Assembly (NCBI GenBank): GCA_043228905.1
Contig: JBHGNT010000003.1
Span: 5,270,001 to 5,334,000 of the forward strand
DNA from: Azolla caroliniana
Taxonomy: Eukaryota; Plantae; Polypodiophyta
Direction of reading: 5' to 3'
Length of the DNA stretch: 64,000 nt
Position 1 is the stretch's first letter, and the number at the start of each line of letters is the position of its first letter. This document shows positions 198 to 52,166 of the stretch, in pieces. Made by a program: the position numbers and the translations under genes. The notes under the pieces were generated by a model. It was given only the letters and a program-made list of their open reading frames with translations, was not told where the DNA came from and did not search any database.

Positions 198-2620
198 TTT
201 TGTGATTTCGATGTAACAATCAGAGCTAAGAAAGCCCTCATCTCTACAAATGAAAAGCTCCGCCGATCCATTCGTGAAAAGAACCCCGTAAGCCGATTCG
301 GCTACAACAATTATATGGCATACCATTACGCCTTTATGATGAACGTAGCAATAGTACGGGAGCCGGAAACCTTTTCCGAAGTCGCGAAGGACCCGTGATG
401 GATCGAAGCAATGAACGAGGAGATGTGTGCATTACGCAAGAACGAGACATGGGATCTCGTTCCCCCCTCACCGTACAAGAAGGCAATCGGTTGCAGATGG
501 ATCTACAAGGTGAAGTATAACGCCGATGGCTCCGTAAACTGCTACAAAGCTCGACTTGTAGTGAAAGGATACGCTCAGATGCATGACGTCGACTATGAAG
601 AGACCTTTGCCCCGGTGGCAAAGATGACGACGGTGCGGACCGTGATCGCACTTGCCATAGCAAAAGGGTGGCACCTCCACCAAATGGACTTCAAGAACAC
701 CCTTCTCCAAGGCGAATTAGAAGAGGAGGTTTTACATGATACAACCACCCGGCTTCAACTCGAGCACCCATCCGAAAGCTGTATGCCGACTCAAGAAACC
801 ACTCTATAGCCTCAAACAAGCACTGCGTGCTTGGCATTCGAAGATAACGCAATATCTTCATCAAATCGGCTTCCATATGTCAAAATCAGACAACTCCCTC
901 TACATATGAAGCTATTCCGCAAGTCCGATCGTCATCATCTTATATGTGGATGACCTAGTCATTGGAGTTGAGCATCTCGTCGAAATCAATAAGGTCAAAT
1001 CCCTCGTTTCCGACAAGTTCAAGATGACGGACATGAAGGAGCTCCACTACTTCCTTGGCATCGACGTAATTCGGACTTTGGATGGAATCATGATCTCTCA
1101 ATGTCACTACATCCTCTACTTGTTATACAAGTTCAGAATGGCTGACTGCAAATCAACGGCAACCCCGCTCGATCGCAATCTCAAACTAGATGCGAAATCC
1201 GACACCAAAGCGTGTGAGCCGACTCAGTATTGGCAACTCATCTAGCTCACGATCACACAATCCGATCTCAGTTATCCGGTTGGTCTCCTTAGCCAATTCA
1301 TGCAAACACCGCGTGATACTCACTTGGATTGCGCTAAGCGAGTTCTACGATACGTGAGCGGCACAATGGTTTGGGGCATCCTCTACAAGACCGCGATGCC
1401 AATACGACTCAAGGGGTACATAGACGCCGATTAGGCCGGCTACAAAGCCGATAGAAGATCAACCTCTGGATTTGTTTTCTCCATTGGCAGCAAGCAATAT
1501 CCTAGAGCAACATAAAGTAACCAATCATCGCACTTTCGAGCACAGAGGCGGAATACAGAGACGCGGTAGTGGTTGCATGTGAGGCCGTATGGCTCAAAAG
1601 GATACTCAAGGATCTGGGCGTACCCATCAAGGATCCGACTTCCCTTTACTTTGACAACATGAGTAGTATCTATTTGGCTCGGAACCCGGTGTTCCACGCA
1701 CAGACAAAGCACATCGAAGTACACTATCACTTCATTCGAGAGCGCGTTCTAGCTGGCGATGTCAACCTACAACACATTAGCACCAATCTTCAAATGACCG
1801 ACATCGTCACTAAAGCCTTAGGAGGCGACAAGCTATGGCAATTCATGACCGATCTCAGATTGACGATCCCTAACCTGCCAAGCTTGAGGGGGAGTACTGA
1901 AGACGCTACGCAATAACGCGCAAGCCAAAGCACAGACTTCAAAACTACGAACAACGCAAGCTGGAGCACAGATTTCGCAACTCTGCATAAATGCGAGTCG
2001 ACGCGGACTCCAGAACGCGAGTCGAAGCAGATTTCGGATACCATCTGAAACCGAACTGACTTGAGCTTGAGAGGACGTGTTGAGAATCTAGCTCAACTTG
2101 GTCTAGTGTGTGAAGTCACCTTGAGAGTGAATAGACACTCCAACAGTCAAGAGTCACCATTATGTCACCACTTTGTATTCTAGCATTTAGTATGGGTCAT
2201 AGAATCATAACTTATGAGCTTTCACATTCCCCATGCTCCATGAGTCTTGTAGTTAATCAAGAGATAAAGCACCCTCCTCCCACCTTGTATAGGTAACATT
2301 GAAGGGCATCGCCTTAGATATAGGTAGCTTCTTACATTAAGTTAGGCCGCAAGGCATTTTAAGTAGGCTCATCTTCTTTTACTTGATCGGAGGAAGACTC
2401 CCCGATGTGTGTATAAGTCTCCTTGTAGACTCTCTATGTAATAATCCTTCCTAACTAATGGGAAAGTAGCTTCATTTTGGGGAAAAAAAAAGCACCCTCC
2501 TCCCACCTTGTATAATGTTGAGTCTTTCTCCTTTGTTAATATACTTTACCTTGCGTAATCTTTGTGTCTTACTCCTTGTCTCTCTCACTCTCACTCTCAC
2601 TCTCTCTGATACACACACAC
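198..2620 (+). mobile_element. Degenerate Ty1/Copia element A: RT and RNase H remnants, PPT, truncated 3' LTR (starts 2078)
   Basis: ORF fragments WDLVPP..KAIGCRWIYKVKYNADGS..YKARLV, YVDD, EAVWLKRIL..NPVFHAQTKHIEVHYHF with stops and frameshifts. TGTTGAGAATCTAGCTCAAC at 2078 matches the LTR at 24166. Confidence 0.9.
2292..2488 (+). mobile_element. 197-bp A-tailed retroposed insert (5'-truncated LINE or SINE-like) inside the LTR of Copia A
   Basis: Flanked by a 26-bp direct repeat AAAGCACCCTCCTCCCACCTTGTATA (2266-2291 and 2489-2514) and ends in an A-tract. The homologous LTR near 24406 has a single copy of that site. Confidence 0.7.
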
Positions 2621-5496
2621 AGTTGAAAATAGTGAGACTAAAGTATGTCGATGGGGAGAGCATTGTAGAGCAGATCAGTACCTTCATGGGATTGGTGAAT
2701 CAGTTAGCATTAGCGAAGTTCCCATTAGATGATGCTATGCAAGCCGCACTATTACTGTGTACTCTACCGGATAGTTGGAAAAAATTAATAGTGACACTCA
2801 ACACTTACTGTAAAGAAAACAACCTATCTTTACAGGTACTAAAAACAAGTATCTTAAATGAAGAGACAAGAAGAAAGGATAAAAGTGCCTTGTCTCAATC
2901 GGAAGTTAACGTGACCCAAGAACATAGTAGAGGAAGAAGAGAACACAGAAGTCAAGAAGATTGAGATAGGTTTTATGCAAGGTCAAAATCTAGAGGTAGA
3001 CCTACATGCTTCTATTGTGGGAAACCTGGTCACTTCCAAAAGAATTGTCGACACCTTAGAAATGACAAAGGCATGGCTGATGAGGTCTAACCCAGAAAAA
3101 GTTTTGAAGATAAAAACACCTCAGCCATTGCAACTAGTGAAGAAGAGATGTTATTTATCTATGAACAAGGTAGCGTGAACCTTGCAAATGTTGAGTGCTC
3201 ATGGGTAGTGGATTATGGTGCTTCATTCCACTTAATTCCCAAAAGAGAATGTTTCTCATCTTACATAGTCGTTGACTATGGCTACGTAAGGATGAGAAAT
3301 GACAGTGAATGCAAGATTGTGGGCATAGGAACTGTGTGTTTGGTAACAACTACTGGCTGTAGGTTAACGTTGAGGGATGTACGCCATGTTCCAGATGTCA
3401 GATTGAATTTGATATCGGCTGGAAGGCTAGATGACGAAGGCTACAGTGGTGGCTTTCGAAATGGTACATGGAAGGGAACTTGATTGTGGCTCGAGCTCAA
3501 AAACAAAACACACTGTAAAGGGAGCTTGAGTTCTGTAAAAGGAGCTTGATTGCGGCTTGAGCTAAAAAACAGAACACATTGTATGTAATGCATGCCAAAT
3601 TGTGCCGAGATGAAGCCAATGTAGTGGGTGACTTAGATGGTGAGTTGTGGCATAAAAGGCTCGGGCACATGAGCGAAAGGGGAATGCATATCCTTGCTGA
3701 AAAGGATTTTCTACCAGAGGTGAAAGGAATACACCTTGAAAAATGTGTGGACTACTTGGCTGGAAAGCAAAATAGAACAACCCTTCACTCCAGATCTCCG
3801 ATGAGAAGAAAGCATGCCTTAGAACTGGTTCACTCAGATGTGTGTTATGTGGATGCCCCATCACACCGCGGTCGACAATACTTTGTCACATTTATTGATG
3901 ACTTCAAAAGAAAGGTGTGGGCTTATGTGTTGGTGTCTAAAGACCAAGTGTTGTTGTTCTTTAAAGAGTTTCACGCAAGGGTAGAAAGGGAACCTGGACA
4001 GCAGTTGAAGGCTGTCCGGACAAATAATGGCGGTGAGTATAGAGGCCAATTTGAGTCGTATTGCAAGACTCAAGGCATCAAACTTGACTATATGGTGCCG
4101 AAGACACTTGAGCTAAATGGTTTAGTAGAGAGAATGAACCGGACTATAATGGAAAGAGTAAGAAGCATATTGGCGCAGGCAAAACTGTCAAAGTCGTATT
4201 GGGCTGAGGCAATGTTGACGACGGTTTATCTCATAAACAGGTCTCCATTAGTGTCCCTGAAGGGGAATGTACCATAGAGGGTGTGGACAGGAAGAAATGT
4301 GTCTTATCATCTCTTAAAGGTGTTTGGATGCTTGGCCTATGTACTTGTTGCTAAGGATCAGAGGGCAAAGTTGGACAACAAGTACAAACCTTGTATATTC
4401 TTGGGATACTCAGAAGACGATTCGGGTATAGGATGTGGGATCTCCTTGATAAGAAGGTGATAAGAAGTCATGATGTTATATTCATGGAAGATAAGACAAT
4501 CGAAGGCTGGAAACTACAGAGACCAGAGTCATTTTCCCAATCGACTATTGTTATGGAGTCGATACTAGTCGATCTCACTCCCACACAACTAGTCAACAGA
4601 CAACAACCAGATGATGAAGCCGAACCTGAGTTGGCCGACACTCAATAGCAAATTGATGCACATGAATCTGCCTCGAAAGATGAGTTGTTGGATGAAACTG
4701 AATTTGAGTCGGTCATTGAAGGAAGAAGATACCCACAAAGACAAAGGAAGGCCTCCTCTCGTTATCCAACCAGTCAATATATCCTCATGACTGATGAAGG
4801 GGAACCAAAATGCTATGAAGAGGCCATGACTGATGTACACAAGGATAAATGGTATAATGGCATGCAAGAGGAAATGGAGTCCTTGCATGAGAACCTCACC
4901 TATGAGCTAGTGGAGTTGCTTGATGGTAAGATGGCACTTAGAAACAAATGGGTCTACAAATTAAAGACTGGGGAAGACGGAAGTACACCCAGGTATAAGG
5001 CCCGCATTGTCGTGAAGGGTTTCCAACAAAAAAAAGGTGTTGATTTTGATGAGATTTTTGCTCCAGTTGTTAAGATGACCTCTATCTGGACTATTTTGAG
5101 TATGGTTGTGAGTATGAATTTGGAAATTGAACAGTTGGATGTTGAAACATCCTTCGTGCACGGTGAGTTGGAAGAGGAAATCTATATGCAACAACGGGAG
5201 GGCTTTGAGGTAAAAGGAAAAGAGAACCTCATATGTAGGTTGAGAAAAAGGTTGTATGGGCTAAAGCAAGCCCCACGACAATGGTATAAGAAATTTGAGT
5301 CCTTCATGTTGGAACATGGATTCCACAAAACACAAGCTGATCATTGTATATTTGTGAAAAGGTATGATGAAGGTGACTTTCTTATTCTTTTGTTGTATGT
5401 AGATGATATGTTGGTTGTTGGACAAGATTTTAAAAAGATTGCAAGCTTGAAGAAAGCTTTGAGCAAATCTTTTGCCATAAAAGAGTTAGGACCCGC
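2620..5496 (+). mobile_element. Degenerate Ty1/Copia element B (Tnt1/Tork-like): gag, protease, integrase, RT; truncated at both ends
   Basis: LLCTLPDSW gag, WVVDYGASFH protease, LWHKRLGHMSE..LELVHSDVC integrase, RYKARIVVKG..LLLYVDDML RT. Short tandem duplication near 3472-3583. Confidence 0.9.
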
Positions 5497-5515
5497 AAAC
5501 CCTAAACCCTAAACC
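5497..5515 (-). repeat. Interstitial plant telomeric repeat (TTTAGGG)x2.7 at the breakpoint of Copia B
   Basis: AAACCCTAAACCCTAAACC directly follows the truncated RT codons ...GGACCCGC. Confidence 0.75.
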
Positions 5516-5533
5516 ATGACTCTCCCCCTTCGC

Positions 5534-5609
5534 TCATTGTATATTTGTGAAAAGGTATGATGAAGGTGACTTTCTTATTCTTTTGTTGTATGTAGATGAT
5601 ATGTTGGTT
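5534..5609 (+). repeat. Exact 76-bp duplicate of Copia B RT segment 5341-5416
   Basis: TCATTGTATATTTGTGAAAAGG...GATATGTTGGTT occurs twice. Confidence 0.9.
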
Positions 5610-6348
5610 TGTTATGTAGATAGTCCCTCCTTTTCGGGGGAGTCAGCCGAAAAGTTGACTCGAGAGTTGGCTGGCCGAAATTGGTTGGGAAGCCGACTTC
5701 GAAATCGGTTGAGAAGCCGAAACGTGTCGGTTGGCCGAAATCGGTCGAAAACCGAAATGGTATTTCGGTCGAATGGGAGTCGGCCTAATAGAACTTCGAA
5801 CAAACATATACATATATATATGTATTAGAGATGAACTAGTATATATAGTAAGAGTAAAACTAGCTACGCTTGTATGTGGGATAACTCACTGCGAGTAAAA
5901 ACAGTGAGAAAAAGCGCGAAGGTATACTTAAGTGAAAAGGCGAGTGCGTGAGTTATATAAGAATATATATTGCAAGAGAAGAGTGAGCTATCATAGTAGT
6001 GGTTGTGAGAGTGACATAACTTGAAAGCTGAGTGTGAGAGGAAGAACGAACAGTGCAACAGAAAGGAAGAGTGACAAAAACAGAGAAGTTTTGGAAGCTT
6101 CAAAAGGGATAGATACCTACGAGTTACGGTTTGGTGCACTCGGCTGAAATTGTGGTTTCAGAGTACACTCAGACCAGATCAAGTTCTATCATTTAGTGAT
6201 GGTATTTTGTCTTACTTCATACTGGAAATTTCTGTTCCGTGTTTTTTCCCTGAAATTAGGGTTTTTCACATAAATCATGTGCTACTCGTTCTATTTCTGT
6301 GTGTCTCTAAGTTTATTTGTAAGTTTTTTCTAAGTGAAATCATTTCAT
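5610..6348 (+). mobile_element. LTR (about 740 bp, TG start, 3' end lost or fused to the ROCO pseudogene)
   Basis: Starts TGTTATGTAG inside the duplicated RT piece. GCCGA-rich U3, TATATAA, AG-rich R and telo-box/T-rich U5. No matching TSD. Confidence 0.6.
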
Positions 6349-8512
6349 AATGGACCCTGACATTGAGGTGCAGCTGTGGAGGAACCGGTGCACTTTCATG
6401 TTGGGATCAGATTTGAAGTGAGTGCCCGCAACATCCATGTCATTGTTCATCTGTGGGGATCCATCTACAGGCAAAACATGACACAATCTTAAATATTGAA
6501 AACCTCACAAGCTAGATTGATGAGGATAAACACTAACACTTTCAATTCATTTGTTTTGGCGCAGGAAAGACTACCCTTGTATCTACCATGCGCTCCACGT
6601 ATGGGCACAAGAGAGATAGGCTGAGAGCCCTATTTACCGAAGGGCGTATACAAGGAATCGAGGTCCAAGCCATCAAAAGAGAGGGAATCTGAGTGTCTAT
6701 GTGGGACATGGCAGGCCAATCAAAGTTTCATGCATTCCATGATTGTATGTTCCCCGACATAGGCACAAGCTCTTATCAGATTCCATCCATGCTCATGTTG
6801 GTCTAGAGTCCGATGGAGAGTGAAAGTAGCGATAGAGGAGCAAGGAAAATAGACGTGGACTTCGAAGCAAGCTTCAGGTACTGGCTCAAGTTCCTCACCT
6901 CCAAAAGTCACTTGAGCAGACGAAATGGAGCTTGTCTCAAGCTCTCTCTCACCTTCCATTGATTCACTTTGATCAGATTTTAAAGGGGTTATTGACATTG
7001 TCGACCCTCCATTTGATGTGGATTCAAGAAACAAGGATTCTGTAAAAGTTGTAGCAAAATGAATCTTCTCCATTGCCAAAGAGTTGGTTCAAGGTATTGG
7101 CCGTGTGCCCACACCTGCACACACAAGGAAGCGAACATCTCCCCTATTCAATATTTGTGGTTTTCTAAGTGCACAAAATCAAACTATGTGATAGATGTGT
7201 TGGTTCGAGCTCAAAATAATACTCAAGAAAACACTCTAAGTACCTTAGTTTTTGTGCAAAAGCGTATCGTCAATACCTTAATTACAATATGTGCACAACC
7301 TATAGGTGTCCAAGGTGTTAATTTGATCCAGAGTGTAATCCGGCCCGATTAGTTACGTTCTCCATGAAGGACGTTAGATACAGAAGATCAATGCATGGAA
7401 ATAACTTATTTGAAGGAACAACTATTAAACAAACTTGAGCAAGGCGAGCATGAATTTTTTGATTGAAAACTGACCAGGCATATGCATGTTTCTCTCACAA
7501 GTGCTTTAATTGAGCTCTTAAGCTCAGAGTTTTATGGGGAGGTCCTCAATTCATGCAAACAACGGTTTGAGGTGGAGTTAGGGGATGCATTGTTGGAGAA
7601 TGATGAATTCAATTTATCTAGGCAATATCAAAGTCGTGAAAATGTTATTACAACTAGTCTTGAAAATGATTTGATACAAGGTCAAACATCTAAACACACA
7701 GTGAAAGAACAATCTAGTAAGTTTATGGTAAGGCCAAATTTAAATTTACATCGTAAGGTGGATGCCCCTCTTGAAGAGGTCCTAAAGCTATAACATAAGG
7801 TGTATCAAATGACCAAGAAGCTAAGGGAAGTACATAAAGAACTTCAATATATGAGGAAAGATGTTATGAGTAAGGTTGAGAAATCTATAGGCAAGCTATT
7901 GATGATGGCTCTAGAGAATGAGACAAAGAAACAACTCCCACACACTGCTTTCCTTACAACTAAATCTCACAACTCAAAGATGGGAAAACTTTTGAGATGG
8001 GTGGCTCAACTTTTGGGAGAGGAGTTTGTGAGAATCCAATTGTATCGTGAGGATAAAAATTTGCCACACCTGGTGGAGAACCAACCTGGTATCACCCTCA
8101 CCTCTTTGTTTGTGTCTCATTCATAGACTCTAAATAAAGCTCTTCCATATATCAATTGTTTCTTTCGTGTTTGGACTATAGCTACTAGACTTGGTATTTC
8201 CTCTATGGCTCCCCTTGCAACCTCTTTGAATCCTCATTGGACACATCACCTCAAACTAGCAAAACAATACCCTATAATACAATGTACTTCGAAATCCAAA
8301 AAATATATATAATTTAAGTATCCTAGAGTGTGCATCCAAAGAGTTGCAAAAGTGCTTGGCATTTATATTGGTGGGGAGGGTTGACAGACCAAAACACAGC
8401 TGCGAAGTTCTATCTTATGCGTACAATATGTTATGTAATTGACGGGAGTACTCAAATTGCATGGTTATGGAAGACACATTGTGAGGGAAAAACTCCCTTT
8501 CAGCTAGGCTAA
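6349..8512 (+). pseudogene. TORNADO1-like Roc-COR pseudogene (5' LRR part lost, COR N-half deleted), with GC-AG intron 6471-6564
   Basis: Translates to MDPDIEVQLWRN..FICGDPST(G)/KTTLVSTM..WDMAGQ..CMFPD..KSNYVIDVLVRA..KQLPHTAFLTT..RIQLYRED..QIAWLWKTH. Collinear with the intact gene but with many stops and frameshifts. Confidence 0.9.
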
Positions 8513-10473: not shown

Positions 10474-10705
10474 GTTTTTCTTCCTCCGCCACCATTCTCC
10501 CAACTTTTCAAGCCGATCTCTACAATCTGATACATAGCTAGCTCATTTACTGAAGGAACTCTGCGTGTGGATGGATGCAGAGACTGCAGATTTCTCTTCC
10601 TCTTTCTCCGCCACCATTGTTCCAGCTTTTCAAGCCGAGCTGACCAATCTTATACATAGCTCATTTACTGAAGTGTCTCTATATGTGGATGGATGCAGAG
10701 ATTCT
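10474..10705. repeat. Diverged tandem duplication, about 115-125 bp x2
   Basis: CTCCGCCACCATT..CTTTTCAAGCCGA..ATACATAGCT..CATTTACTGAAG..GTGGATGGATGCAGAGA is present twice. Confidence 0.85.
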
Positions 10706-11285: not shown

Positions 11286-11845
11286 TTAGCCTAGTGGAAA
11301 GGGCCTTTGTCCTTTGTAGTGTGTCTTGCATAACCATGCAACTTGAGTACTCCAGCGAGCTCCATAACAGATTCATACGAAACTTCTCAGCAATGTTTTG
11401 ATGTGTCAAACCTCCCTTTTCCATCAATATCAATGCCAACCACTTTTGCCACTCTTTGGAAGCAAACTATAGAGTGCTTAGAAATATATCTTTTGTTTTA
11501 TTTAAAAATACTCTGTATCATAGGCTACTGTTTAGCCAGTTTGAGGTGGGTTGTCCAATCAGATATCAAACAGCTTGCAAAAGGGAGCCATAGAGGAAAT
11601 ACCAAGTTTAGCAGCTATGGTCAAAACACAAAAGAAACAAACCATTGATATATGGAAGAAGTCTGTGTAGATACTCTGAATGAGTCTATCAGATCGGCTT
11701 TCCACGGGGTGTTGCACTTTTTTATCCTCACAATATAATTGGATTCTCAAAAACTCCTCCCCCAAAAGTCGAGCCACCCATCTCAAAAGTTTTTGAACTG
11801 TCCAATTGCAAGATTTCGTAAGTTCCTCGACCTTAGATTGTGATC
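11286..11845 (-). pseudogene. Out-of-frame C-terminal remnant of a second tandem TORNADO1-like copy (now the 3' UTR of the fused gene)
   Basis: KLLRWVARLLGEEFLRIQLYCEDKKVQHPVE...STQVAWLCKTHYKGQRPFPLG* (TAA at 11288-11286). Closely matches 7985-8512 in inverted orientation. Confidence 0.85.
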
Positions 11846-14800
11846 TGATACCAACATCATATTTTGCTGGTTCCTCCACAGTTGGGCCTCGATGGCAGGG
11901 TTCTTCATAGAAAAGAGGGCTTTAATTTCAAAGAAAGGAAGGACGGAACGAGAAAGTGCATCCACCACCGCAGCAGTTGCAGATTGGCTTAATTCCTTGT
12001 CTTTAATGAAGCCTAATTGAAGACTGTATAGTTGAGGAGGCGAGGAAGGGGCGCTGCCAGCTGTTCCCGCCCTCTTCTTTGGCGGTGCTAGGTAATCCAT
12101 GAAATCCATTAGCTGCTCCTCTTCCATATATTTGCTGTCTAGAGAGAGCTCTTTGAGGTTGGGCCAGTGCCGCAGGAAACCAGTGCTCTTTCTCCAGTTC
12201 ATGCGTTTCGAATATATATGCAGTCTCTGGAGGGAGGCTGCGAGGGGCGAATGCGAGGAATGAAGGTTCGCCAATTTCACCACAAACTCTGCGGATACTC
12301 TCACACCCTCAAGGTGGAGGGATGTGAGGGACGTGAAGTCGCCTAACAGCTCCACGCACTCATCGCTAATCTTCATATCCTGAAGGGAAAGATGTTTGAG
12401 GCGTTTGTTTTTCTTGAGGGCACTCAGAAGACAATGACTACCCCTGAATTCTCGAGCCTGAATGACGAGGCTGCTGGGTGCCGCATCACGATCTGCAGCA
12501 AGAGAGAGCGCCTCCACCCAAGCTCTCTCCTCCTCTGCAGTTAGATCCAGGAGGAGATGGAGAGCTCCGCCTGTGAGATTGGCAGTAGCCATGAGGATGG
12601 CCATCCGTTGTTCGGTAGTGTCGGCATCTCTGAAATTGAACATCATGTCTGTGTTCCCCCAGTCCCAAACTGGATGATTTGGTTGCGGATCCTCGAGGCT
12701 ATTTATCGGTCGTCTCGGTCGTCGTTGTTCTGCAAAATTCCGTCTCATGATTCCCCTGTTCATTACATATGACCAATATGCTATTCCATGGTTTTGCAGC
12801 TTCTTCTTAGCGATGAGGAACAGGTTCTTAACATTAATTAGTTGAGGGAGTTGCTGCCCCAGCTCATGATGATCGCTAATACCCTTCAAAGTAATCGACA
12901 ATTTCTCCAAACTATCAAGAGCTGCTCTGGATTTCTCGCACGCCTCTGTAATTTCAAAGGAATTCCACATCATTTTCGTGAGGCGGTGAGGGGGTTGAAG
13001 TTTCTGGTGAAACATTTGAAAATTAGAAAGTTGGAATTGCAGGGATGCAGCCTCCACATCCCTCCTAAATTGCATTTCATGGTGTGCCTTGCATAACCAT
13101 GCAACTTGAGAACTCCCGCCGATTTTATCATCATAAATTGCATGCCTGAGACAGAACTTCTCAGCTATGTTTCCGACTGTGACACCTCCATTTTCCACCA
13201 ATACTGATGCCAACCACTTTTGCCATTCATTGAAAGACTCTATCATGCTTGGACATTCGGGAGAGATTGTTGATGAGGTAGTTATATCCTTTATTGATTC
13301 AACAATGCTCGATAGCAGAGGATACTGTTTCGCCAGTTGGCGGTGGCAAGTCCAATCAGTTTTGAAAAGGTTTGAAAGGGGATCAACAGAGTCAATTCCC
13401 ATTACAATGGCTACACTCAAAACATAAAAGAAACCATTAATATATGGAAGAGCTTTAGAGAGACACTCTGATTGAGACGTTGACCAGGAGGTGAGGATGA
13501 TGCCAGGTTGGTTTTGCACTGGGTGTGGCAGAATGTGATCCTCACAATACAATTGGATTCTCACCGATGTCACTCCTGAGAGTGAAGTCACCAGATTAGT
13601 TATTCCATTGTCACCATTGGTCGTAAGGATGGCGACACGAGGGAGTTGCTTCTCATTCTTATCCTCATTCCCCATAGGGAGCTTCAAGAGCGTACCTATA
13701 CATTTCTTAATCTTGGTCATCACATCCTTCCTCACATGTTGAAAGTTTTCATGTATTTCCCCTAGCTTCTCATTGATTTTGCTTAACCTCTTGTCTACCT
13801 CTAAGATCTCATTATTAGGAACATGTAAATTTGAGATGACCTTTCCCATATACTGGCTTGATTGTACCTCAATTGCTTCTTCTGATTCTAGCTTTACCAT
13901 GAACTTGCCGCATTTTACCTCAATTGCCTCTTCTAATATTTCACGCTCTTGCGCCAGGTTATTTTTTACGCTAGCGATGGTCAAATTTTGATGACTTTGG
14001 AGTTGCTCAAGTACATTGTCTTCATCATTCCTCAGCAATTCATCCCCAGATACTAGATCCAACCATGCTTTACATGAAATAAGAATTCCCCAATAATTCT
14101 CGAAACCAAGGAGATCAATTAAGTCATAAATTGTTTGAGGACAAGGCATATTCGTATTGCACTTCCAATCATAACATTGTGGCTCCCCTCGTTCAAGCTT
14201 TTCTCTTAGTTGTTCCTTCAAATAAGTTATTTTCATGCACTGATCTTCTCTGTCTTGTGCCCTTGATGGATCAACTAAGCATTCGGGTCGGATGACGCTC
14301 TCTATTATCTTCACCCCTTGGATGCCACTGGGTTGAGCTAGTATTGTAATCAAGCTGTCGATAATATGCCTCTCCACGTAAGCTAAGGTTCTCGGCATAT
14401 CTTCTACTTCAGTATTGTTTACAGCTCGAACCAACACATCGATGACATAGTTTGATTTTGCTTGGCACAACACCACAATGATCTCCTTGTTTGGAAACCG
14501 GATGGATATGGATTCCTTCCCAAGCATAATGTTAGCATTCGATTGGAATGCATTGTTAAATAAGACTTGAATCCTAGGAAAGATTCCTGGTGTAAGAAAA
14601 GTAAGGTCTTTCTTTTCGCACTCTAACCTTCGACCCCTATACACAAAAGAATCATTATCACCTAAGTTGCATGTTGGTGGCAATGAAGCCCATTGAAGCT
14701 GCTGTACACCCACATTTACCAATATTGCTGGGATAAAGATAAGATCTGCATTGCTTTCAGAGTCTCCATGGTCAATGGCAACTTTGCAACATAAATGCAT

Positions 14801-17267: not shown

Positions 17268-19197
17268 GATAAATATATGTATGAACCAAGTGACCTGATT
17301 GTTTGGTTTGGTCTGATTAGATTTCCGCTTTCAACTTTCCTTTTTCTATTATCTCTAGTTCTATGACAGTTGAAATTTTGAATAGTGGTATGTAGGATTG
17401 ACGTACGTACATACGTACATCCATCCATACATATAATTCATACAATACATACATATATACATAAAATCCATACCATACATACAAACATGGTGCGACTTGG
17501 TTGTCGTGGGTTTGGTGGACCATCCGCTACAAGTAATAATGGTGACTTTTAAATTGCAGGCGAGGATATTCTCGATCAAGTAGGGCATCAACAAGATGAT
17601 GTGGTGGGGATGGTTTCTACGTCCACACCAAATTTATTAATTATGGGCGTATTGTTGCATGTTTCTGTTCAAATAGTGGAGTAGATCTTGAGAATGACTA
17701 GCACAGGAATTGAAAACAGACAATGCTAATAGTCCAAGTCTAATTAACTTCTCAAGTGTATCTTATTATTGGTAAAGAGAAATTTGACATTGGGTGACTT
17801 GCCACAATGGCAACGTGTAGTACAAATAAAGAGAGATCACGATGGTAAGGAATGTATAAAGAAGAGATCGGAAGAAACTTGTATAATTACATATTTTGAG
17901 ATAGCCAATATATGTGAGATTAACTGTCTCCTGAGTGAGAGTATTGGGGAGCTTCTGTTCCATGTTGTGGCCAGAAATGCTCTACAAGTGTATTGAATCA
18001 CATAAATTTGCACAATAGGAAATGCTGAAGACATCATCAATATGGGAGCTAAGGTTGACTACTCTACCTTGCATTTAACTACTCTGAAGGGGACATTGTT
18101 GTAGTGCAATGGCTTGTCAGCAAGCATCCTCCATCTCGAACTGCACAGGAAACTATATCCCAATGAAGACAAACAACAAACAACAAATTCAATTTACATT
18201 CCCATTTCTGGTGGCTTTAGCATCTTGTTCTTTTGGCACATTGAAATTCTACACATAGCATTAATTCAAATGTTTGGGGGCATTTATTCGTCTTTTCAAG
18301 TGAAATGCCGTGTTTCCTTTTCCTTCCATTAATTTTTGATTGGCCTCTATAGAAATTTGGAAAAGATTTTGGCACGCTCATGGACCAATTATTGAAACAA
18401 TTGTACATATTATTTGTCGAGGATAGAAATGTAAATAGGAAATGGGCTTGTTTGACATCTATAAAAGTAAGCCTAATTTAACATGGATAGTTGGCGAAGA
18501 ATACTTGAAAGCTTGGATCCATATAATAGACAATTTACGTACAATTCACCACTAATGGAATAGTGTCATTTTCAAAAGTGTATATTTAGCTTGTTTAAGT
18601 TTAGCTAATGTTACTTTGAGCGAAAGATCAAAAGTTGAGACGGGAGAGATTAGTGTACTCCATGAGAGATATATTATAAGTTGATGGTCACAATCCTCAC
18701 TAAGATGATTTGTGATTAAGCTACATATACAAAACACATGGCATAGTAAAAAGTTGATGCTGATTGAGCACATGCTCTCTCCTTTGCCTTCTCTTTTTTT
18801 TGGCCATCCAATTGATTATTATTTTATTTGGTCAGTAGCATGTTTGATGAATGGGAATTAAAACTATATTCGAATGAAGACAAACGACAAACAAAATTCA
18901 ATATGAATGACACAAGCAATGCAAACTTTAGTTGATTCGTTTTTATTTTCCCATTTTTTGTTGCTTTAGTCTCTTGTTCTTTTGTCGCATTGAAGATTTA
19001 CTAGTGGCAGTGAACGATGATAAAAGGTAGACAATAACATGGAGCTAAACAATTGAATAAGGCTAGGTAGGATTGACACATACATACATCCAGACATACA
19101 TCATAAATGGTATATATAAATGGAGGTATGGGCAAAATTCAACTGAATCTGTGAGTGCGTCTTCTTCTTTCTGAGTTACTACGGACAACGACAAAGA
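17268..19197. promoter_or_regulatory. Divergent (head-to-head) intergenic/promoter region with internal duplications
   Basis: 1930 bp between two divergent ATGs. TATATATAAA near 19111. Motif GTAGGATTGAC..CATAC(A/G)TACATCCA at 17392 and 19067. Block 18162-18250 repeated at 18873-19000. One W-box TTGACT at 18055. Confidence 0.55.
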
Positions 19198-21102
19198 ATG
19201 TCGATAGACAACATTGCAAGAGACTTGCGGATGTATGCAGAGGAAGGTTGTGGCCAAGAGCTTCTGAATCTCATTGGGGAACTATCTGACTCCACGTTCG
19301 ACACCGTGATCACTAAGTTTGATGACAGCAGCGGAGAGCTTCCTCTCCATGTGGCTGTGAGGAAGGGCCATGGACTGGGTGTATTGGGTCAAATCTGCAC
19401 AAAAAGAAATGGGGAGGACCTCATCCATGTGAGAACTGAGGGGGGCTACTCTCCCTTGCATTTAGCTGCTCGCTATGGGAACATTGAAGCAGTGGAGTTG
19501 CTTGTCAGCAAGCATCCTGCTGCTGCTGATTGCAACCTCCCCGATGAGGTGAGCTACAACAGACCCTTGCACCTTGCTGTTCTTCATGGGCACAAAGAGG
19601 TCGCCGCCCGACTCGTCGAAGCGGGAGCCACGCTCACCCTCCAAAATGGTAAGAACATGGTTCCTCTAGGGTTTTGTGAAGATCCAGAGATGTTCCGGGC
19701 CCTTTTCTCGCGCATCGACGATAGAAGAATCGAGAAGGAGATGAAGTATTACAGGGAAAAGTTGTACCCCTGCAAAACCATTCTGCATTATGCCGCTCTT
19801 CATTGCACAGATGAAGCTTTGATCGAAAACCTTTACTTAGCTGCAGCTGGTATTCGGCCAAAACATCTACAAGGTCATCCATCAAGTAAGGAAGTGTTAG
19901 AGCATGTTGATGAAGAAGGGAACCCATTCTTGCACAAGGCCGGAAAGCATATGTTGAAGGTGATCTTCAAGGGGCTGATTAGGAAGGAGCGAGACTTCAC
20001 AAAGCTGTTGGTCATGAATTGTGGACTGTACGATGCTTTTATGGGCAACAGACAACTATATGATGAACTAGCGTCTGATGGGACGACTTCCCAATTCAGT
20101 TTGGAATCGATGCAAGGGGAGCTCCTGTTTAGGCTCAAGCAATGGAGACAGGATGTAGGCGACGAGGCAAAGCAAATCCTGAAGCAACCATGGACGAATT
20201 CTCTCCTTCCATATCTGGCACTTTACCTGGGTAAGCACGAGGTCTTGAACTTCATACTGGATTCAAGATTGGAGTTCACTTTGAATCAACCGGATGCAGT
20301 GGAGAAGAGGTCGTGCCTGCATTGGGCGGTGTTACACAATCGAGTGGACATTGTGGACAGGCTCTTTATCTGCTCCCTCAGCTGTTGCAAGGGCAAGAAG
20401 CGCAAGCAAGAGATGGTCGACTGTCGGATGAGGTTCAAGAAACCAAGCCCAAGTGTAGTGGACGGTGCAGGGATGACAGCATTCCATATTGCATTTAACC
20501 AGAAGAATGAGGTAATGATGCAGACCCTGAGGAGGCAGAAGGAATTCAATGAATACGAAGACAAATTGCTGAAGGACAGGGAAGTGTATGTGCAATCGGT
20601 GAATGCAATCCTGGTGGGTTCGGCATTGATAGCAAGTATCACATTCGCCGGCTGGTTGCAAGTGCCATCGCATGTGTTCGGCAGCAGGGCAATGATCACC
20701 TTCTGGATCACCAACAGCTTGTCATTCGTCTTCGCAGTTGCGGCCATGGGTTTAAGCATCGGGATCCTGCTACTCACGCCCACAAGCTACATCGGCCAAG
20801 TAGTGTTTGAGCTTCAAAGGGGTATCATGTACATTGCATTTCTCCTCATGTTCTCGTTGGCAGGAGCCACAGTAGCCTTTATAACAGCAGGTTTCGCTGC
20901 ATTTGGGAATCAAGCTCCCCAACCAGAGTACAACATAGCGATGGGAACCGCTACAGGTCTTGGCGGCTTTGTTTGTGTGCTCATTCTAACATATTACATG
21001 CGCCAAGTGAAACTTCACAGTTCCGCATATCGACAACAAAGGATCACTTCCCATAGCAATGAAGAGCATGAGCGTCCACGAGAAACAATAGACTTAGAGT
21101 AA
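19198..21102 (+). CDS. Ankyrin-repeat protein with C-terminal PGG-type 4-helix transmembrane domain (ACD6/ITN1-like ANK-TM), 634 aa, intronless
   Basis: About 8 ankyrin motifs (GELPLHVAVRKGH, GYSPLHLAARYGN, RPLHLAVLHGH, KTILHYAA, RSCLHWAVLHN, GMTAFHIA). TM domain NAILVGSALIASITFAGWLQVP..FWITNSLSFVFAVAA..AFITAGFA..GLGGFVCVLIL. Confidence 0.92.
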   Translation: MSIDNIARDLRMYAEEGCGQELLNLIGELSDSTFDTVITKFDDSSGELPLHVAVRKGHGLGVLGQICTKRNGEDLIHVRTEGGYSPLHLAARYGNIEAVELLVSKHPAAADCNLPDEVSYNRPLHLAVLHGHKEVAARLVEAGATLTLQNGKNMVPLGFCEDPEMFRALFSRIDDRRIEKEMKYYREKLYPCKTILHYAALHCTDEALIENLYLAAAGIRPKHLQGHPSSKEVLEHVDEEGNPFLHKAGKHMLKVIFKGLIRKERDFTKLLVMNCGLYDAFMGNRQLYDELASDGTTSQFSLESMQGELLFRLKQWRQDVGDEAKQILKQPWTNSLLPYLALYLGKHEVLNFILDSRLEFTLNQPDAVEKRSCLHWAVLHNRVDIVDRLFICSLSCCKGKKRKQEMVDCRMRFKKPSPSVVDGAGMTAFHIAFNQKNEVMMQTLRRQKEFNEYEDKLLKDREVYVQSVNAILVGSALIASITFAGWLQVPSHVFGSRAMITFWITNSLSFVFAVAAMGLSIGILLLTPTSYIGQVVFELQRGIMYIAFLLMFSLAGATVAFITAGFAAFGNQAPQPEYNIAMGTATGLGGFVCVLILTYYMRQVKLHSSAYRQQRITSHSNEEHERPRETIDLE

Positions 21103-22378: not shown

Positions 22379-22951
22379 ATGCCGGAGCCTAGCAGTGATG
22401 ACCATCATAATCATAATCATCACCATCATCGGTTTTGTCATCTGATGAACGGTGGCTAATGTTACGATCTTGTTCCTCATTGATAGGAATAATGAACATC
22501 ATGACAGAATAGGATATTCTTCATACTGTGATGGACACATTAGAGAAGAATGAGCTTGGGGGAGCAGAGACATCATCAATTTAGGAGGTACCACTTCAGA
22601 ACAACGAATGGCGTACCTTAGGGATTCTGCCAATTTCAGCAGGGGAGTAGTCCATCTCCTATTTAAACAAAATTCCATCACCCAAGAGGAGGAGAAGGCA
22701 TGGCGGGAGGCTCTCTCTATGGTTGCAGATTATGATGTGGCCCCCAGGAGCCTGCTCATCCATGGAGCAATGACAGGAATGTCCCCTTCACTATACTTTC
22801 GTCGAATCCAAATGGAATCAACGTAAATAAACAATTGAATCAATGATTTAAATTCTATAACATCGGCAGATCCATATGGATGGACGAGGTATCTCCATCT
22901 CTTAATCATCATCAGAAGCTTCAGCCACCTCATCGCTTCATCCAAACGTAT
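22379..22951 (+). pseudogene. N-terminal relic of another TORNADO1-like paralog, cut by an LTR insertion
   Basis: DDHHNHNHHHHRFCHLMN..ILFLI..E*AWGSRDIINLGGTTSEQRMAYLRDSANFSRGVVHLL..EEEKAWREALSMVADYDVAPRSLLI aligns with modules 1 and 2. Followed by HQKLQPPHR, the module start motif. Confidence 0.85.
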
Positions 22952-27275: not shown

Positions 27276-30200
27276 ATGTGCACGAACTTACTCCGCACGA
27301 GAAGTTTTTCAGAAAGACAATGGACCTATCACATGTTCGGATATTCGGCTCCATTGCGTACGTGCACATCCCCGATGAGAAGCAACAAAAGTGTTGAATA
27401 TGAGTGTATAATAATGGCCATATTCACACTGTCCCTTTGGACAGCCCAAGTTGGGGCTATTTCTATAAATAGCATAAAGGGCAGTTGCCCTAGGATAGTC
27501 ACTATATAAAGTGACTTCGTAACCTTTAGTTTGGGTCGTGGTTGTTGTCATTTTGTAACTGTTGCTATTAAGAAATAAATTGTTTCTTTGTGCCTATCTC
27601 TCTCTCTCTCTCTCTATCTCTGTGTATATTGTTTCATTCGCATACACAGGTTCTTCACCATCACGGATGTTGTTTGTTCTTCCGCACTAACGACCTTGTT
27701 CCCCAACATTTGGTATTGGAGCGTTGGAGGTTCTTCAACCCATTGTCGGCTGTCATAGTACACTACACAACATTCTGTTTCTGTTTTTCTTGAAGAATAG
27801 AGAAGAGAGAAAACAAACAAGAAGTCTGCATCTCACTATGTTAAATCACTAATTGGAGTAAGCTAGCCGGTTGTACTCTGCTCCTGTGATTGTAATCCCT
27901 TGAGGTGAGCTCCTTGTGCAACACCCGACCCAATCGTGCTTCATTTGGTTAAACAACATCCGAATAGGTCACCGGACGCTATTCACCCTCTTGTTGTAAC
28001 CACCTGTTGTAGAGTGGTCTCCTGGCAACAACCAAATTCGTGCTTCATTCGGCTGATCGACATTCGGGAGGATAAGTTGGTCCAAAACCAAACCGACTCG
28101 AGTTCAAAACCAACTAGAACGATATCGGATGAGCCGACTGGCTGCACCCCACTAAGGTTCGTAGTCAACTCTGAATAGAGTCTTACCAACCGAAACCTAA
28201 TCAGATGGCATCAACATCCGGCTCATCGGAGATGAGTCTAAGGAGGTTCGACGGTTCGAACTTCAACTTCTGGAAGGAACAAATGTAGGACTATCTCATA
28301 GTCAAGTGTCAGATAGACCCGATTGAGAATGAAAATCCTCCAGAAGCATATAAGGCAAACGAGTGGCTAAAGCTGGACAGAATCATCCCCGCCACGATTT
28401 GGATGCACTTGTTGGAGTCAGTGTACTTCACAGTGCAATCATGCACGACAACTTTTGAAAATTGGAAAACACTGTCGGAAACTTATGAAAAGAAGGTCGC
28501 CGCAACGAAGATGTATCTGATCCGACGCCTCTACAACTTGCGGATGAAAGAATCCAATTCGATTCAGGCGGATGAAAGCCTAAGCTCCTAAATATCATCT
28601 CAGGGGACAGTAATAGAGGATGAACTCAGAGCAATGATACTCATGAGTAGTCTCCCCTCTTCTTGGGAAACTTTCGTCAAAACTGTGTGCAATGCTTCAG
28701 CAACTTTCGTCACAATCGTGTGCAGTCCTGGGACAACCGAATCTGCAACTACTACAAGAAACCGGGCACTCAAAGCAAAAACCGACAAAGCTCAGAGAGC
28801 GGATCAGAAGAGTAGCTGGCATGAGGAGGTCAACTACGTCGGCTCTTCAGCCGAAATTTGGACGACCGACCCGAACATACTGTCCATAGAGAAGCTAGTC
28901 AAATCAGAAGTTCTGCTTACGACTGAGGACTCGAGCACATGGCTCCTGGACTCGGGCACATCGTATCATGTGACACCTCACCGATCTCAGTTTTGGCAAT
29001 ACTCAAACCGGCACTCCGACTCAATTTGAGTCGGGAACTCGCAACACTGTGCCATAATCGGAATCGGCACCGTAGAGCTCAACCTTCCGGGTGGCTCTAC
29101 ACTCGTACTACACAACATCCAACACGTTCCTGAGCTTTCAAGACCCTTGATCTCAGTCGGACAACTTGACGAAGCCGGCATTCGTGTCGGGTTCTCATTA
29201 GGAGGGTGGACACTCCACAAAGGGAACCTCCTGCTTGCTCGAGGACCAAAGGTACATTCCTTGTACCCTTTATATGTCACACTCAAAGAGGGTGACCTAT
29301 TTTTGGTTGATATCCCCGTGTCATCGTTATGGCACGGACGACTTGGACACCTCAGCAAGGTCGGCATAACGCACCTATCCAGAGCCGGTTACATCCCCAA
29401 ACTCTCCTTCTTGGATCACCAATTCTGCGAGCATTGGCAGTACGGCAAACAGGTAGCCGCATCACACCCGACATCAACACCAAGAGAATCGAGTCCCCTC
29501 GATTTGGTCCATTCGGACGTCTGTGGCCCGATGCCACATCAGTCTCTCGGCAATGCTTCGTACTTCATCAGTTTTATTGACAACTCAACTCGGAAGGTGT
29601 GGGCTTACCCCATTAGAACCAAAGATCGGGTGTTCTCGATCTTCTCTGAATGGCTTGCAATGGTAAAAAATCAGACCGGTCGGAAACTGAAATGTCTCCG
29701 AACTGACAACGGAGGAGAATTCAAGTCTAAAGAATTCGTCAAATTTTGTCGGGAACACGGCATTCGACGTGAATATACGAAACCTTGTTGTCCGGAGCAA
29801 AACGGAATTGCAGAACGCATGAATCAGACGATTTAAGAATGCGTAGTATCCATGCTCCAACACTTCGGACTATCGGATGGCTTCTAGGCTGAGGCTCTAC
29901 TTACGATAGTACACATAATCAATATATCACCAAGTAGACCTCTAGGACTTAAAATACCTCAGGAAACATGGACCGGCAGTAAGCCGAATTATGACAAGGT
30001 GAGGATCTTCGGTTGCGAGGCATATGCCCTCATATCGAAAGATGACCGCCGGAAACTCGAACCAAGATCAAGGAAATGCATTTTCCTTGGATATGGACCC
30101 AATGGCGAGATCAAATACTGACTCTGGGACCCTGAGCACAGACAAATCATCTGAAGTTCGGACGTCGTGTTCAACGAGTCGGCTATGCATAAAATGGCCA

Positions 30201-30783
30201 GAAGGCCTATTGAAGTCCGAAGGGTAATATTCTCCGAAGTGCCAACCCTTCATGAAGGCCCAACCCACAACACGAGATTGGTTTCACAGGTAACCGACAC
30301 CTCCCGCATTGAATCCACCGATTTAGCACAGCCGAGTGGCTCGGCTTTTGACCATCCGACCCCTATACCCGGTGTGACTAGTGTAGTCATACCTCGAAGA
30401 TCCGGGAGACTATCGCAACCTCCGAAAAGGTACAGTCCCGGAATTTTCTTTACCGACGCCGACAAACCAACGTCTTACGAAGAAGCATCGGCATCTGCCG
30501 ACTCATCCACCTGGCATCTGGTGATGGAGTCAGAAATGCACTCCATTCATGCAAACAAGACTTGGGACTTGGTCAAATTACCGAAGAATCGACTTGCTCT
30601 TCCATGTAAGTGGGTCTATCAACTAAAAGAGACGTCCGACTCGACCAACCCAAAGTATAAGGCCAGATTAGTTGCGAAGGGATTTCGACAAGAATATTGT
30701 AGAAAGTAGCGTGCGGAAGCAAGTATGAAGATCGAACAGAAGGGAGGAAACTCAGGTTTAATGGAGAGCTTGAGCTTACACGG

Positions 30784-36700: not shown

Positions 36701-37636
36701 GCACCTCGAGCACCTCCGCATGGATGCTCGGCATCGCCACTCGAGGAAACCCGGCAAGATGCCTCTCTTCCGGAATGTCCCGCATCAGCATTTCTGCCCC
36801 GTAGGACGCCAAATACCTTGTGGCATCCTTTCCGCTGAACCGGCCGATAGTACCGACGACCGCATCAATGGCTCTATTGAGGGCGCCGGACCCCTCGCGT
36901 GCGCTCAATATCCGATCCACGGCCGAAGCCATGGCCTCCGCAATATCCGACCCTTTCATCTTCTGCTCTTCTGCCGCCCCTTTCACGTCGGGTTCACCAA
37001 GATGTCGAGGTATTCCTCGCGGATGCGTGGAATGAGGCGGGACCTCGGGGGTCCTGTACCGAAGAGCAAGAGAGAAAGGAGAAGAGACCCACTACGTGCG
37101 AGCGTAGATTCACAGGGACACGGCCCTTCGACACAAAGACGCGAGTGGGACAACGACACAGAGAGACACGAATGTATGTATGTATTAACAAAGACAAACA
37201 ACAAGAACACGAAGTCGGTTATAACCGACCAGGCCGACGAACAGATGCCGATGCCTGTTCGTAAACGCACAAAAAGAAAGGAGTAGGTTGGAGGTGCTGC
37301 CGGAAGCACTCAGGCAGTCCTCAGTGCAGCGCGAGCCTCCCGAAACCTGCACAGAAGAAGCTATGGAGTTTGGAAGAGAAAGAAGCCTTCGGCCCACAAT
37401 CCGACAGCACTTCGTCCTCTCTTACTTCGGGATCCCTTCCCCCTTCTTGTCTCCCTCCTTTTATAGGTAAGGAAGGAGCCGTTTCCTATTAACTTCCTAC
37501 CTACCGAATCTACCTACCTAGGATCTTCTATGTCCCTAATTCTCTCTTATGTACAACGTAAGGCATACGTGCATGAAGAGCCGACTCCTATGCTCCGGCG
37601 CACCGACTCCGCTCGTGGACGGTTTTCTTCACGACA
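30784..37636 (-). mobile_element. Full-length GC-rich Ty3/Gypsy E: LTRs 30784-31398 and 37003-37636; gag-PR-RT-RH-IN with lesions
   Basis: 4-bp TSD ACGG, PBS TGGTGAACCCGACGTGAA, gag knuckle CMWCDEVGHIRKDC, protease LVDHGSEIN, RT PYSNRWFTVPKKNG..FLDD, integrase H..GHRG..CESC..PFGPY-type GPY motif (WFGPY). Confidence 0.93.
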
Positions 37637-41200: not shown

Positions 41201-41715
41201 CCTTCTTCGCGTAGTTGATGGAGTGAAATGGTCGAAACTCGGTCAGCTGATTCTTGGGGTGGTCGATATCGGACTTCTCTTGTTCTCCAATCTATGGCTG
41301 GATTATGTAATTCAAGCCAAGGTAATCCTAGGACAATGGGATGCTCTGGACTACTAATTATATTAAATGATATTATACACACAAAACTACCTAGGACAAC
41401 TTGAATGGGTTCTGATTCTTCTACAATATTCCCGGAAGCAATGGGACGACCATCAATGACCACTACAGATGCGGGACAAGGAAGTTTTCTTAAGGATATC
41501 TGAGAAGCTTGGGCAAAATTTCGATCCATGAAACAAGAATTAGCTCCGGAATCTAAAAGTGCTAGGACGGGTACTGGGGGAGTACTTTTAGTACTAACAA
41601 TGACTTGGGCTAGGAACAAATTGCTAACTTGCTTGGAAGGAATGGAACCACTAATGGGCTGTACAGATCTAGGGCTGCTGTCCAACCAAATGGCTCCTAT
41701 TTTGGCTGGACTCAA
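38296..41715 (-). CDS. pol: Chromovirus T1 Pol (PR-RT-RH-IN-chromodomain) with an internal integrase deletion and a compensated frameshift
   Basis: LLDSGAN, YLDD, EADASD, HxxGH..CDAC, GPF, chromodomain [28 protein letters not shown]. Confidence 0.85.
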
Positions 41716-46300: not shown

Positions 46301-46870
46301 CTCTGTGCCCTTGTGCAATCACACGACCTTCTTCCTCAATGAAGCACCCGAGGTGTGTAAACCGAACCTCCATCCCTTGGTTGACGATTTGTCTGACTGA
46401 GACCAAGTTTTTCGTGATTGTCGAAACGTGTAGCACGTTCATGAGTTTCCCTTTCTGCCCGACATGGCTAAGGGGAACTTCTCCAAAATTCGCGATCGGA
46501 TGCGAAGTGTCGTCTCCTGTTGCGACTACTCCAGGTTGTATCAGTTTTTCAAGGTACGAGAACCACTCCTTATGGCTCGTCATGTGGTTTGACGTGCCGG
46601 AGTCTACGTACCACACCTCGTCCGATCTCGGGGTGGTCTGTTTCATTGAGTTTGCTTCGTGTCTCGTCACGAAGGCAGACCCTTCTCCGGCTCTCCCGGA
46701 GTCTTCGGCGTAGTGCGATCACTGCTGATTTCCCTTGTCGGTATGTCCGGAGCTGTTTCCGGAACCGGTTCTCTCCAAATCGGCGCGCTTCTTCCAGCAC
46801 TCGCTTTCCTGGTGGCCTTTCTTGCCACAGTACCAGCACTCCGTGATGGCCTTCCCTTGCCGGTTCTCAT

Positions 46871-46964
46871 TGTTGAAGACAAGGCCGTGTCGATGCGGAA
46901 GATCAAGAAGCATTCGATTAGGGTTTGAGTACCTGCGTATGACAGTTTCTGAGATCGTGCACAT

Positions 46965-47006
<42 letters not shown>

Positions 47007-52117: not shown

Positions 52118-52166
<49 letters not shown>

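Follow-up and report, generated by a model that had tools for sequence, protein, structure and literature searches.

A predicted ROCO gene with a second, C-terminal leucine-rich repeat module in a gene cluster of Azolla caroliniana

Gene model and domain order

The stretch of DNA analysed here, called the window, is 64,000 nucleotides (nt) long and covers positions 5,270,001 to 5,334,000 of contig JBHGNT010000003.1 in the Azolla caroliniana assembly GCA_043228905.1; feature coordinates below are positions in the window. Its minus strand carries a predicted gene of the ROCO family at 17267–11783, with the domain order LRR-Roc-COR-CT-LRR: an N-terminal leucine-rich repeat (LRR) domain (module 1), a Roc GTPase domain with COR, the C-terminal domain of the family (CT), and behind it a second LRR domain (module 2). 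In the open reading frame list and its translations, a frame of 1377 codons occupies 15916–11783 and a second frame of 461 codons lies upstream; excision of a predicted 97-nt GC-AG intron (15961–15865) joins both into a protein of 1795 amino acids (aa). Roc is directly followed by COR, as in a ROCO protein, according to the alignment of Roc and a Pfam COR-A score of 36.3 bits (cut-off 35.3). Both LRR modules sit in continuous open frames, and a one-exon-per-repeat layout is not present. No Pfam match to NB-ARC was obtained in the gene and family frames scored.

Exon 1 (17267–15962), delimited from the frame, its translation and the residue map, codes for a His/Gln-rich leader, module 1 (about 17072–16044), and the first part of the P-loop (GDPFSG). 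Its start codon was placed according to the MAEEAA starts of fused paralogs, and module 1 is taken as an LRR of the ribonuclease inhibitor (RI) type by homology to module 2, whose model was matched to known structures. The leaders of module 1 hold His/Gln runs of variable length (window 17267–17070, L035:1100–1250, L043:8600–8900; labels with L denote loci), and those of L035 and L043 also hold a partial repeat of the first LRR helix (CEKSRAxLDSLK). The intron lies within the P-loop, and its predicted removal restores GDPFSGKT at residue 431 together with the 1795-aa frame; the G1 motif depends on this removal, which an earlier note on this DNA, made from the sequence alone, did not mention. 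The GC donor is also present in L035, L043 and L050, and L046 has GT, while the intronless paralogs L051, L055 and L064 (and P0004) show an identical GDPxAGKTT junction without splicing. The common GC donor of the three relatives and the three intronless loci support the predicted intron. Across the family, the P-loop intron (L031, L035, L043, L046, L050) has a GC donor in many paralogs and is missing from the L051/L055/L064 group.

Exon 2 opens with the remainder of Roc (15864–15203), in which G1 and G4 (TRAD, 15388–15377) are retained in an alignment with 35 family rows. Pfam Roc is scored by unfused paralogs and not by fused exon-2 frames; the Roc region of the gene aligns end to end with the paralogs that score. 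It holds a basic insertion of about 35 aa in switch I (15817–15710, limits approximate) and a remodelled switch II (15613–15575), WDIPAQQQFLAFQ in place of W[DE]MAG..EFHAFH. Then follow COR (15202–14171), a predicted coiled-coil linker (14170–13646), which forms long helices in the AlphaFold model, and CT (13645–13079), which runs from QLYCEDH to AWLCxxH, is modelled as a confident alpha/beta domain and may hold a metal site. A Foldseek search with an 807-residue model returned LRR matches alone and no PDB match for CT, and so is uninformative on the fold of this domain; an Atlas search gave no usable match for it either. When the Roc-COR sequence of the window was searched against PDB chains, nothing was found at E≤1.

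The fusion junction and the fused subfamily

Behind AWLCKAH (13102–13082), the frame continues through HEMQFRRDVEAASL..QKLQPPHRL into module 2 (13075–11843). The junction (13081–13055) consists of the last His-Glu of CT, an ATG at 13075 and an RRDxEAASL-type leader. Module 2 is 51% identical to the N-terminal module over 354 aligned residues (43% by tblastn). The earlier note had described an in-frame read-through into a copy of the N-terminal LRR; all motifs that it quoted are present, the junction is common to independent copies, and its non-standard ROCO architecture stands, with a further LRR behind Roc-COR at 13075–11843. It had also placed the paralog ends 8 codons behind the AWLxKTH motif. 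The ends do stop shortly after it, but at 10 codons in both ends within the window. In the fetched loci, motifs of this type are followed by a stop within 3–12 codons in 46/48 cases and at exactly 10 in 34/48; in the other two of these 48 C-terminal motifs, from 60 fetched loci, the frame stays open for more than 400 codons, both at the same junction.

Module 2 is followed by a copy-specific tail, a 19-nt filler and remnant DNA out of frame, with the stop (11842–11783). The break proposed earlier at about 11845 was recovered, as homology to an ordinary exon-1 end stops at 11843 and the C-terminal remnant behind it is out of frame; this remnant comes from another paralog. It is of the ordinary type (11823–11286), starts at 11823 in a different frame, ends at a stop at 11286–11288, and is 83% identical, 3' flank included, to the L039 gene. 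That it is broken was correctly seen: five frameshifting indels and stops lie within about 0.55 kb when it is compared with the closest intact relative.

An assembly chimera, named in the earlier note as refuting its reading, or a chance read-through of this one copy, would be conceivable in a repetitive tandem cluster, and no read crosses position 13078 at full identity among the contigs of the sequencing runs X1–X3. These runs gave pieces only: none of their contigs spans 13078 or the intron at full identity, and X3 yielded nothing. Nevertheless, a search with the junction DNA found it spanned at 3 of the 40 places listed in the genome, the window and the paralogs L035 and L043, which are 80–83% identical to the window in DNA. 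The junction is also common to L091, P0001 and P0011, and six proteins of the P0001 cluster carry it. As a related gene, 13078 is bridged by contigs of X1 (records 4 and 5) and X2 (record 9), and X1 holds two pieces of module 2 of the window without any difference. A chimera is therefore ruled out at the level of the subfamily, and for the window copy its probability is negligible.

Searches of the same genome gave at least 99 matches for module 2 and at least 83 for CT, nearly all on contig C3, where two ROCO clusters lie at about 3.58–6.09 Mb and 22.2–24.1 Mb (G000:C3, L031–L090). These counts include fragments and are read as roughly 50 TORNADO1-like genes and pseudogenes; the 60 loci of 10 kb fetched are fewer than all matches. 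Pfam Roc and COR-A are both recognised in ordinary members, one of which, an intronless gene, matches the Atlas cluster "protein TORNADO 1" at 0.96. By this feature match of one paralog, the family is likely TORNADO1-like.

Three fused genes of the genome are intact (window, L035, L043), each having its own exon 1 followed by an open frame for Roc-COR-CT-LRR, and a fifth, broken fused piece lies in L039. The independent 6457-bp contig L091 has module 1, intron, Roc, COR, CT and the start of module 2 in frame at 86% DNA identity and ends inside module 2; L092 is frameshifted before the junction. Protein P0001, from outside the assembly, has the identical linker at the fusion. Of the nine members of its cluster, five have a complete module 2 and one a fragment of it, and P0011 is cut inside module 2. 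The fused Roc-COR-CT sequences form one clade (5 rows, SH 100), and so do the three module-2 sequences of the genome (100/97). A profile search of 1.84 billion representatives returned a list headed by about 25 strong fragments of the family, below which came generic LRR proteins; no long protein in this list, read without a check of single hits, matched the whole module.

The structure prediction proposed in the earlier note gave an RI-type LRR for module 2: the AlphaFold model, computed from an alignment of 28 rows, shows a solenoid built from roughly nine strand-helix repeats and a capping helix NPAIEAQLWRNQ, with a predicted local confidence (pLDDT) of 84 and a predicted template-modelling score (pTM) of 0.85. 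The best structural matches are axonemal LRR proteins, NLRP9, RanGAP and NOD2 (Z 16.8–18.2; root-mean-square deviation 3.6–4.6 over 263–277 residues), RI itself is among the matches at Z 16–18, and Foldseek agrees. In a model of the coiled coil, CT and module 2 together, both domains are folded and linked by a helix.

In the trees, a short stem (0.17–0.18 changes per site) leads to the module-2 clade, the neighbour of the ordinary N-modules, while the stem of module 1 measures 0.90–0.95; the best identity to 22 ordinary modules is 62–66% for module 2 and 49–50% for module 1. The earlier claim that module 2 is the strongly diverged one was overturned by these stem lengths and identities, and module 1 is the aberrant module. 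A leader like RKDxEAASL occurs in 3/3 modules 2, by pattern in 2/3 modules 1 (the third has a variant), and in 0/22 ordinary modules. The second start codon, the ATG at 13075, is kept in L035, L043 and P0011, and P0001 has Thr there. The fused copies go back to a single ancestral fusion, made in frame at this codon. On sequence grounds, the leader common to both modules points to an origin by one tandem duplication of the N-module of the ancestral gene itself, fused at the second start codon; module 1 would have specialised after the fusion, and gene conversion from ordinary paralogs would have come later. The capture of a module from a close paralog is a possible alternative origin.

P0011 and P0001 are 97.7% identical over 909 residues of the scaffold and 47% over 151 residues of module 2. 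The module of P0011 groups with that of the window, and the module of P0001 with the unfused L046 and L048 at 82% identity (100/100), so the slot has been filled from two donor lineages. The first part of module 1 also differs between L091 and L092. The 3' ends are of three distinct kinds, all behind the capping helix: the window joins the remnant resembling the end of the L039 gene, a different tail is common to L035 and L043, and in P0001-type proteins the sequence continues to GDPFAGK and an intron-like tail. This last end, like that of an ordinary exon 1, was seen in P0001, P0008 and P0012–P0014.

Remodelled Roc switches and selection on module 2

The Roc alignment has 36 rows, 5 fused and 31 unfused. 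Only the five fused rows have the switch I insertion, which contains a further copy like G2 that reads RARAIKV in the window gene and RTRGIKV in relatives. At the aligned G2 position, the window gene reads IQRIAV in place of RT[QK]GIEV, and the canonical RTxGIxV is present in none of the fused rows and in 30 of the 31 others. In switch II, the change is from W[DE]MAG..EFHAFH to W[DE][IV]P[GA]..F[LP]AFQ; the G3 motif W[DE]MAG occurs in 31/31 unfused and 0/5 fused rows. The window gene has DIPA there, with the glycine of DxxG replaced, and the other fused rows have DVPG, DIPG and EIPG. Outside the insertion, the ratio of nonsynonymous to synonymous substitution rates (dN/dS) of Roc is 0.61 in the fused genes and 0.28–0.32 in three ordinary trios. 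In the available text of PMC6337361, conservation in Roco proteins is highest in the DXXG (switch II) region, with switch I variable, and in that of PMC11052575, switch II of the Chlorobium tepidum Roco (CtRoco) couples the nucleotide state to rotation and position of the LRR and to monomerisation and dimerisation. To judge by these motifs, the fused Roc would be slowed or uncoupled in its GTP switching.

Among the fused paralogs, dN/dS is 0.50 in COR, 0.48 in CT, 0.67 in module 1, 0.68 in Roc and 0.94–0.99 in module 2. At 0.39, the dN of module 2 is the highest in the protein (rest 0.12–0.23). For module 2, model M1a is better than strict neutrality by twice the log-likelihood difference (2dL) of 42, and M2a better than M1a by 31–36, assigning a dN/dS of 0 to about 27% of sites and of 6–7 to 13–15%; in view of these fits, a mean near 1 is no sign of neutrality alone. 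The same comparison of M2a with M1a gives 13–50 for ordinary N-modules in 4/4 trios and only 4–5 for the fused module 1. Positions on the strand face have a dN of 0.57 in module 2, 0.55–0.83 in three ordinary trios and 0.14 in module 1; their enrichment is significant in two of the three ordinary trios. In neutral simulations, all three modules 2 stayed open in 0/5000 runs at a synonymous divergence (dS) of 0.415 and in 1/5000 at dS 0.234, and the branch of the window alone in 20 to 238 of 5000. There are 15 gap blocks among the three modules, and every frame is open. In Roc-COR-CT, the three intact copies differ by 20%, at a dN/dS of 0.5, and are free of stops.

Selection on module 2 is thus supported in these comparisons by the three intact copies, independent contigs, simulations and site models, as the earlier note had concluded. 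Its argument did not hold in the form given: the remnant, which it used as a neutral control, is not a fair one, since L039, its closest relative, has an N-module outside the module-2 clade and the remnant may have been dead before it was joined.

Interpretation, related systems and surroundings

The most favoured reading, with a probability of about one half, is that the C-terminal LRR is a variable ligand-sensing head on a protein whose remodelled Roc does not cycle normally, and which signals via COR with ordinary paralogs or by a change of shape. The gene, with its predicted 1795-aa product, would belong to a small fused subfamily in a TORNADO1-like ROCO cluster of about 50 members. Module 1 would have turned into a conserved part for structure or for binding a partner, module 2 would have taken over the variable sensing role of the family, and the GTP switch would be loosened in the fused Roc; output would pass through COR dimers with ordinary paralogs or arise from a ligand-driven change of shape. 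The sensor role, already suggested in the earlier note, gains support from positive selection on module 2 and from the exchange of modules; together with it, partnering with ordinary ROCO proteins and a defence-type function would be expected.

A number of results weigh against this sensing-head reading. Ligand-sensing and partnering stay putative, and no transcript of the fused gene was seen among the contigs of X1–X3, whose RNA status is a guess and which were counted neither for nor against expression. L035, L043 and P0001 retain Thr in the inserted G2-like copy, and other GTPases with DIPG can bind GTP, so Roc may be altered rather than dead. The codon models were computed with the authors' own code (F3x4) on three sequences. 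The fused-specific first 100 codons of module 2 are little constrained (2dL 4.4 against neutrality), and its first 110 codons stayed open in 40–241 of 5000 neutral runs. The model shows no confident packing of module 2 on CT (pTM 0.55), and two of the nine P0001-cluster members end before the junction. Further points on this side would suit equally a module 2 that is a tolerated passenger without a role of its own, in which only misfolding is purged and gene conversion keeps the frame open and mimics positive selection. Its mean dN/dS is not different from 1, and pre-defined strand-face positions are not enriched in it for three-way differences (10/45 against 45/300, p 0.27). In sliding windows, the cores of module 2 are a patchwork, as close to ordinary paralogs as to one another, so that conversion could refresh the open frame and inflate the site tests. 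A fourth fused copy (L071:6115–8595 and L050:3950–5810) is broken, with an interruption of about 5 kb in Roc and a clean deletion of module 2 that starts shortly within the AW motif and reaches the tail common with L043. On the other hand, a stop just behind CT would cost a passenger nothing and would restore the ordinary protein, yet none has been fixed in 3/3 intact copies or in 5/5 full-length P0001-type proteins; the three different 3' ends all lie beyond the capping helix; and the N-part specific to the fused copies, for which none of 22 modules is an unfused donor, is likewise open, and its indels keep the frame. A passenger is judged unlikely.

Slightly more credible, though still doubtful, is a module 2 that docks as an autoinhibitory lid or scaffold on Roc-COR or CT, of its own chain or of a partner, and replaces control by the GTP switch. 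Such an arrangement has a model in the LRR of CtRoco, which folds back on Roc-COR and touches switch II (PMC11052575, available part); it would agree with a switch II altered exactly in the fused clade and a whole solenoid kept through the cap in every copy. A fixed self-contact predicts conservation, yet the dN of module 2 exceeds that of every other part, the module is replaced by one of 47–56% identity on a near-identical scaffold, and the conserved strand face is that of module 1. It is improbable that the subfamily began as a double ROCO (LRR-Roc-COR-CT-LRR-Roc-COR-CT), still kept by some relatives, in which a degenerate first unit regulated an active second one and of which the copies in this genome are truncations, possibly dominant-negative or decaying. 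P0001-type modules continue into GSDLKRVPATSIRLFICGDPFAGK and the intron-like tail like the end of an ordinary exon 1, and a second Roc-COR exon may follow behind them, giving a double ROCO; a C-terminal remnant lies in the window, and an 86-bp COR-like scrap behind module 2 of L035. But no second Roc-COR was found behind L035/L072 or L043/L073, the contigs able to show a second unit end too early, the P0001 end is explained by a module swap alone, and the three truncated copies have a stop-free Roc-COR-CT, 20% diverged, at a dN/dS of 0.5.

The sensing-head reading has an analogy in sensor/helper pairs and integrated-domain forms of nucleotide-binding LRR (NLR) receptors, in which a variable domain is added to a receptor with a degenerate nucleotide switch in a fast-evolving cluster. 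By analogy, the fused subfamily resembles the NLR division into sensors and helpers, the helper being putative. The likeness is one of working only: there is no NB-ARC here, and while the integrated domain of an NLR is a decoy copied from a host target, the added domain here is the family's own LRR.

Among ROCO proteins, plant TORNADO1 (TRN1) is an LRR-Roc-COR leaf-patterning gene of flowering plants with an N-terminal LRR only, and ROCO genes in plants are confined to flowering plants, according to the available text of a review (PMC4104024). The window gene is like it in having an RI-type N-terminal LRR followed by Roc-COR, and differs in belonging to a cluster of about 50 family members, among them a subfamily that has a second, C-terminal LRR and changed switch motifs. 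The LRR-ROCO genes of brown algae are clustered candidate immune receptors under positive selection with N-terminal, exon-shuffled LRRs (PMC3341825, PMC11378527, in the parts available). They are alike in clustering, local duplication, gene birth and death, and positive selection and exchange of LRRs; however, their shuffling exons are single repeats at the N-terminus, whereas here the exchange is of whole one-exon LRR domains, with the variable one at the C-terminus. The C-terminal additions described there are a peptidase, DUF900 or membrane segments, unlike the LRR here. CtRoco has the LRR-Roc-COR core in common and is the model for switch II, LRR position and coupling to COR dimerisation, but, in the available text of PMC11052575 and PMC6337361, it has one LRR, an intact DxxG and a measured GTPase cycle, and is without a C-terminal LRR. 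In the literature searched, no ROCO protein with LRRs at both ends was found, although one could be present in the supplements or in the domain figure of PMC11378527, which shows about forty animal combinations; no ROCO expansion in seed-free plants was found either, and PMC12512272, on fern receptors, is without Roc, tornado or GTPase. What is new relative to described ROCO proteins is the second, C-terminal LRR and the remodelling of switches I and II in the fused clade alone. The ROCO clusters, with positively selected sites in ordinary N-terminal LRRs, are like an immune-type expansion. It is a tentative and rather unlikely extension that a seed-free plant has an immune-type network made from ROCO GTPases instead of NLRs, in which ordinary members would signal and fused ones would be sensors with a silenced switch and a C-terminal cassette slot for the LRR of any paralog, in some haplotypes perhaps for a whole second ROCO.

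Knowledge of plant ROCO proteins comes from a single developmental gene. If the sensing-head reading is true, ROCO proteins would repeat the sensor/helper division of NLRs with the variable LRR moved to the other end and the GTPase switch changed. The family also offers natural variants, the same scaffold with different LRRs and intact against altered DxxG, for testing the coupling of LRR and Roc, still an open question across ROCO proteins, including LRRK2.

An ordinary-type ROCO pseudogene on the plus strand (6340–8512) stands tail to tail with the fused gene; it has an LRR end, the identical GC-AG intron, and Roc-COR-CT with stops and frameshifts. At 22515–22766 (plus strand), part of a ROCO LRR module stands isolated and contains a stop. 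About 600 bp downstream of the remnant, there are two 100-bp direct copies, 82% identical (10479–10701). On the other side, an intact ankyrin-repeat gene with a PGG membrane domain (19147–21102, plus strand) stands head to head with the fused gene, about 1.9 kb from its start, and a partial copy of an ankyrin/PGG gene lies near 17988–18245; the intact gene is of a type that resembles ACD6-like defence genes. The rest of the window holds a retroelement-like GC-rich block (31472–37636, 57–61%) with long frames on both strands, where a 597-aa frame (35298–37091) has no Pfam match; several nested Ty1/copia-type elements with open frames for gag, integrase and reverse transcriptase (223–5609, 28081–30697, 43384–56749); and two copies of a chromodomain-bearing Ty3-type long terminal repeat retrotransposon (38296–43379 and 57445–63131), which are 98–99% identical and have gag and pol in different frames.

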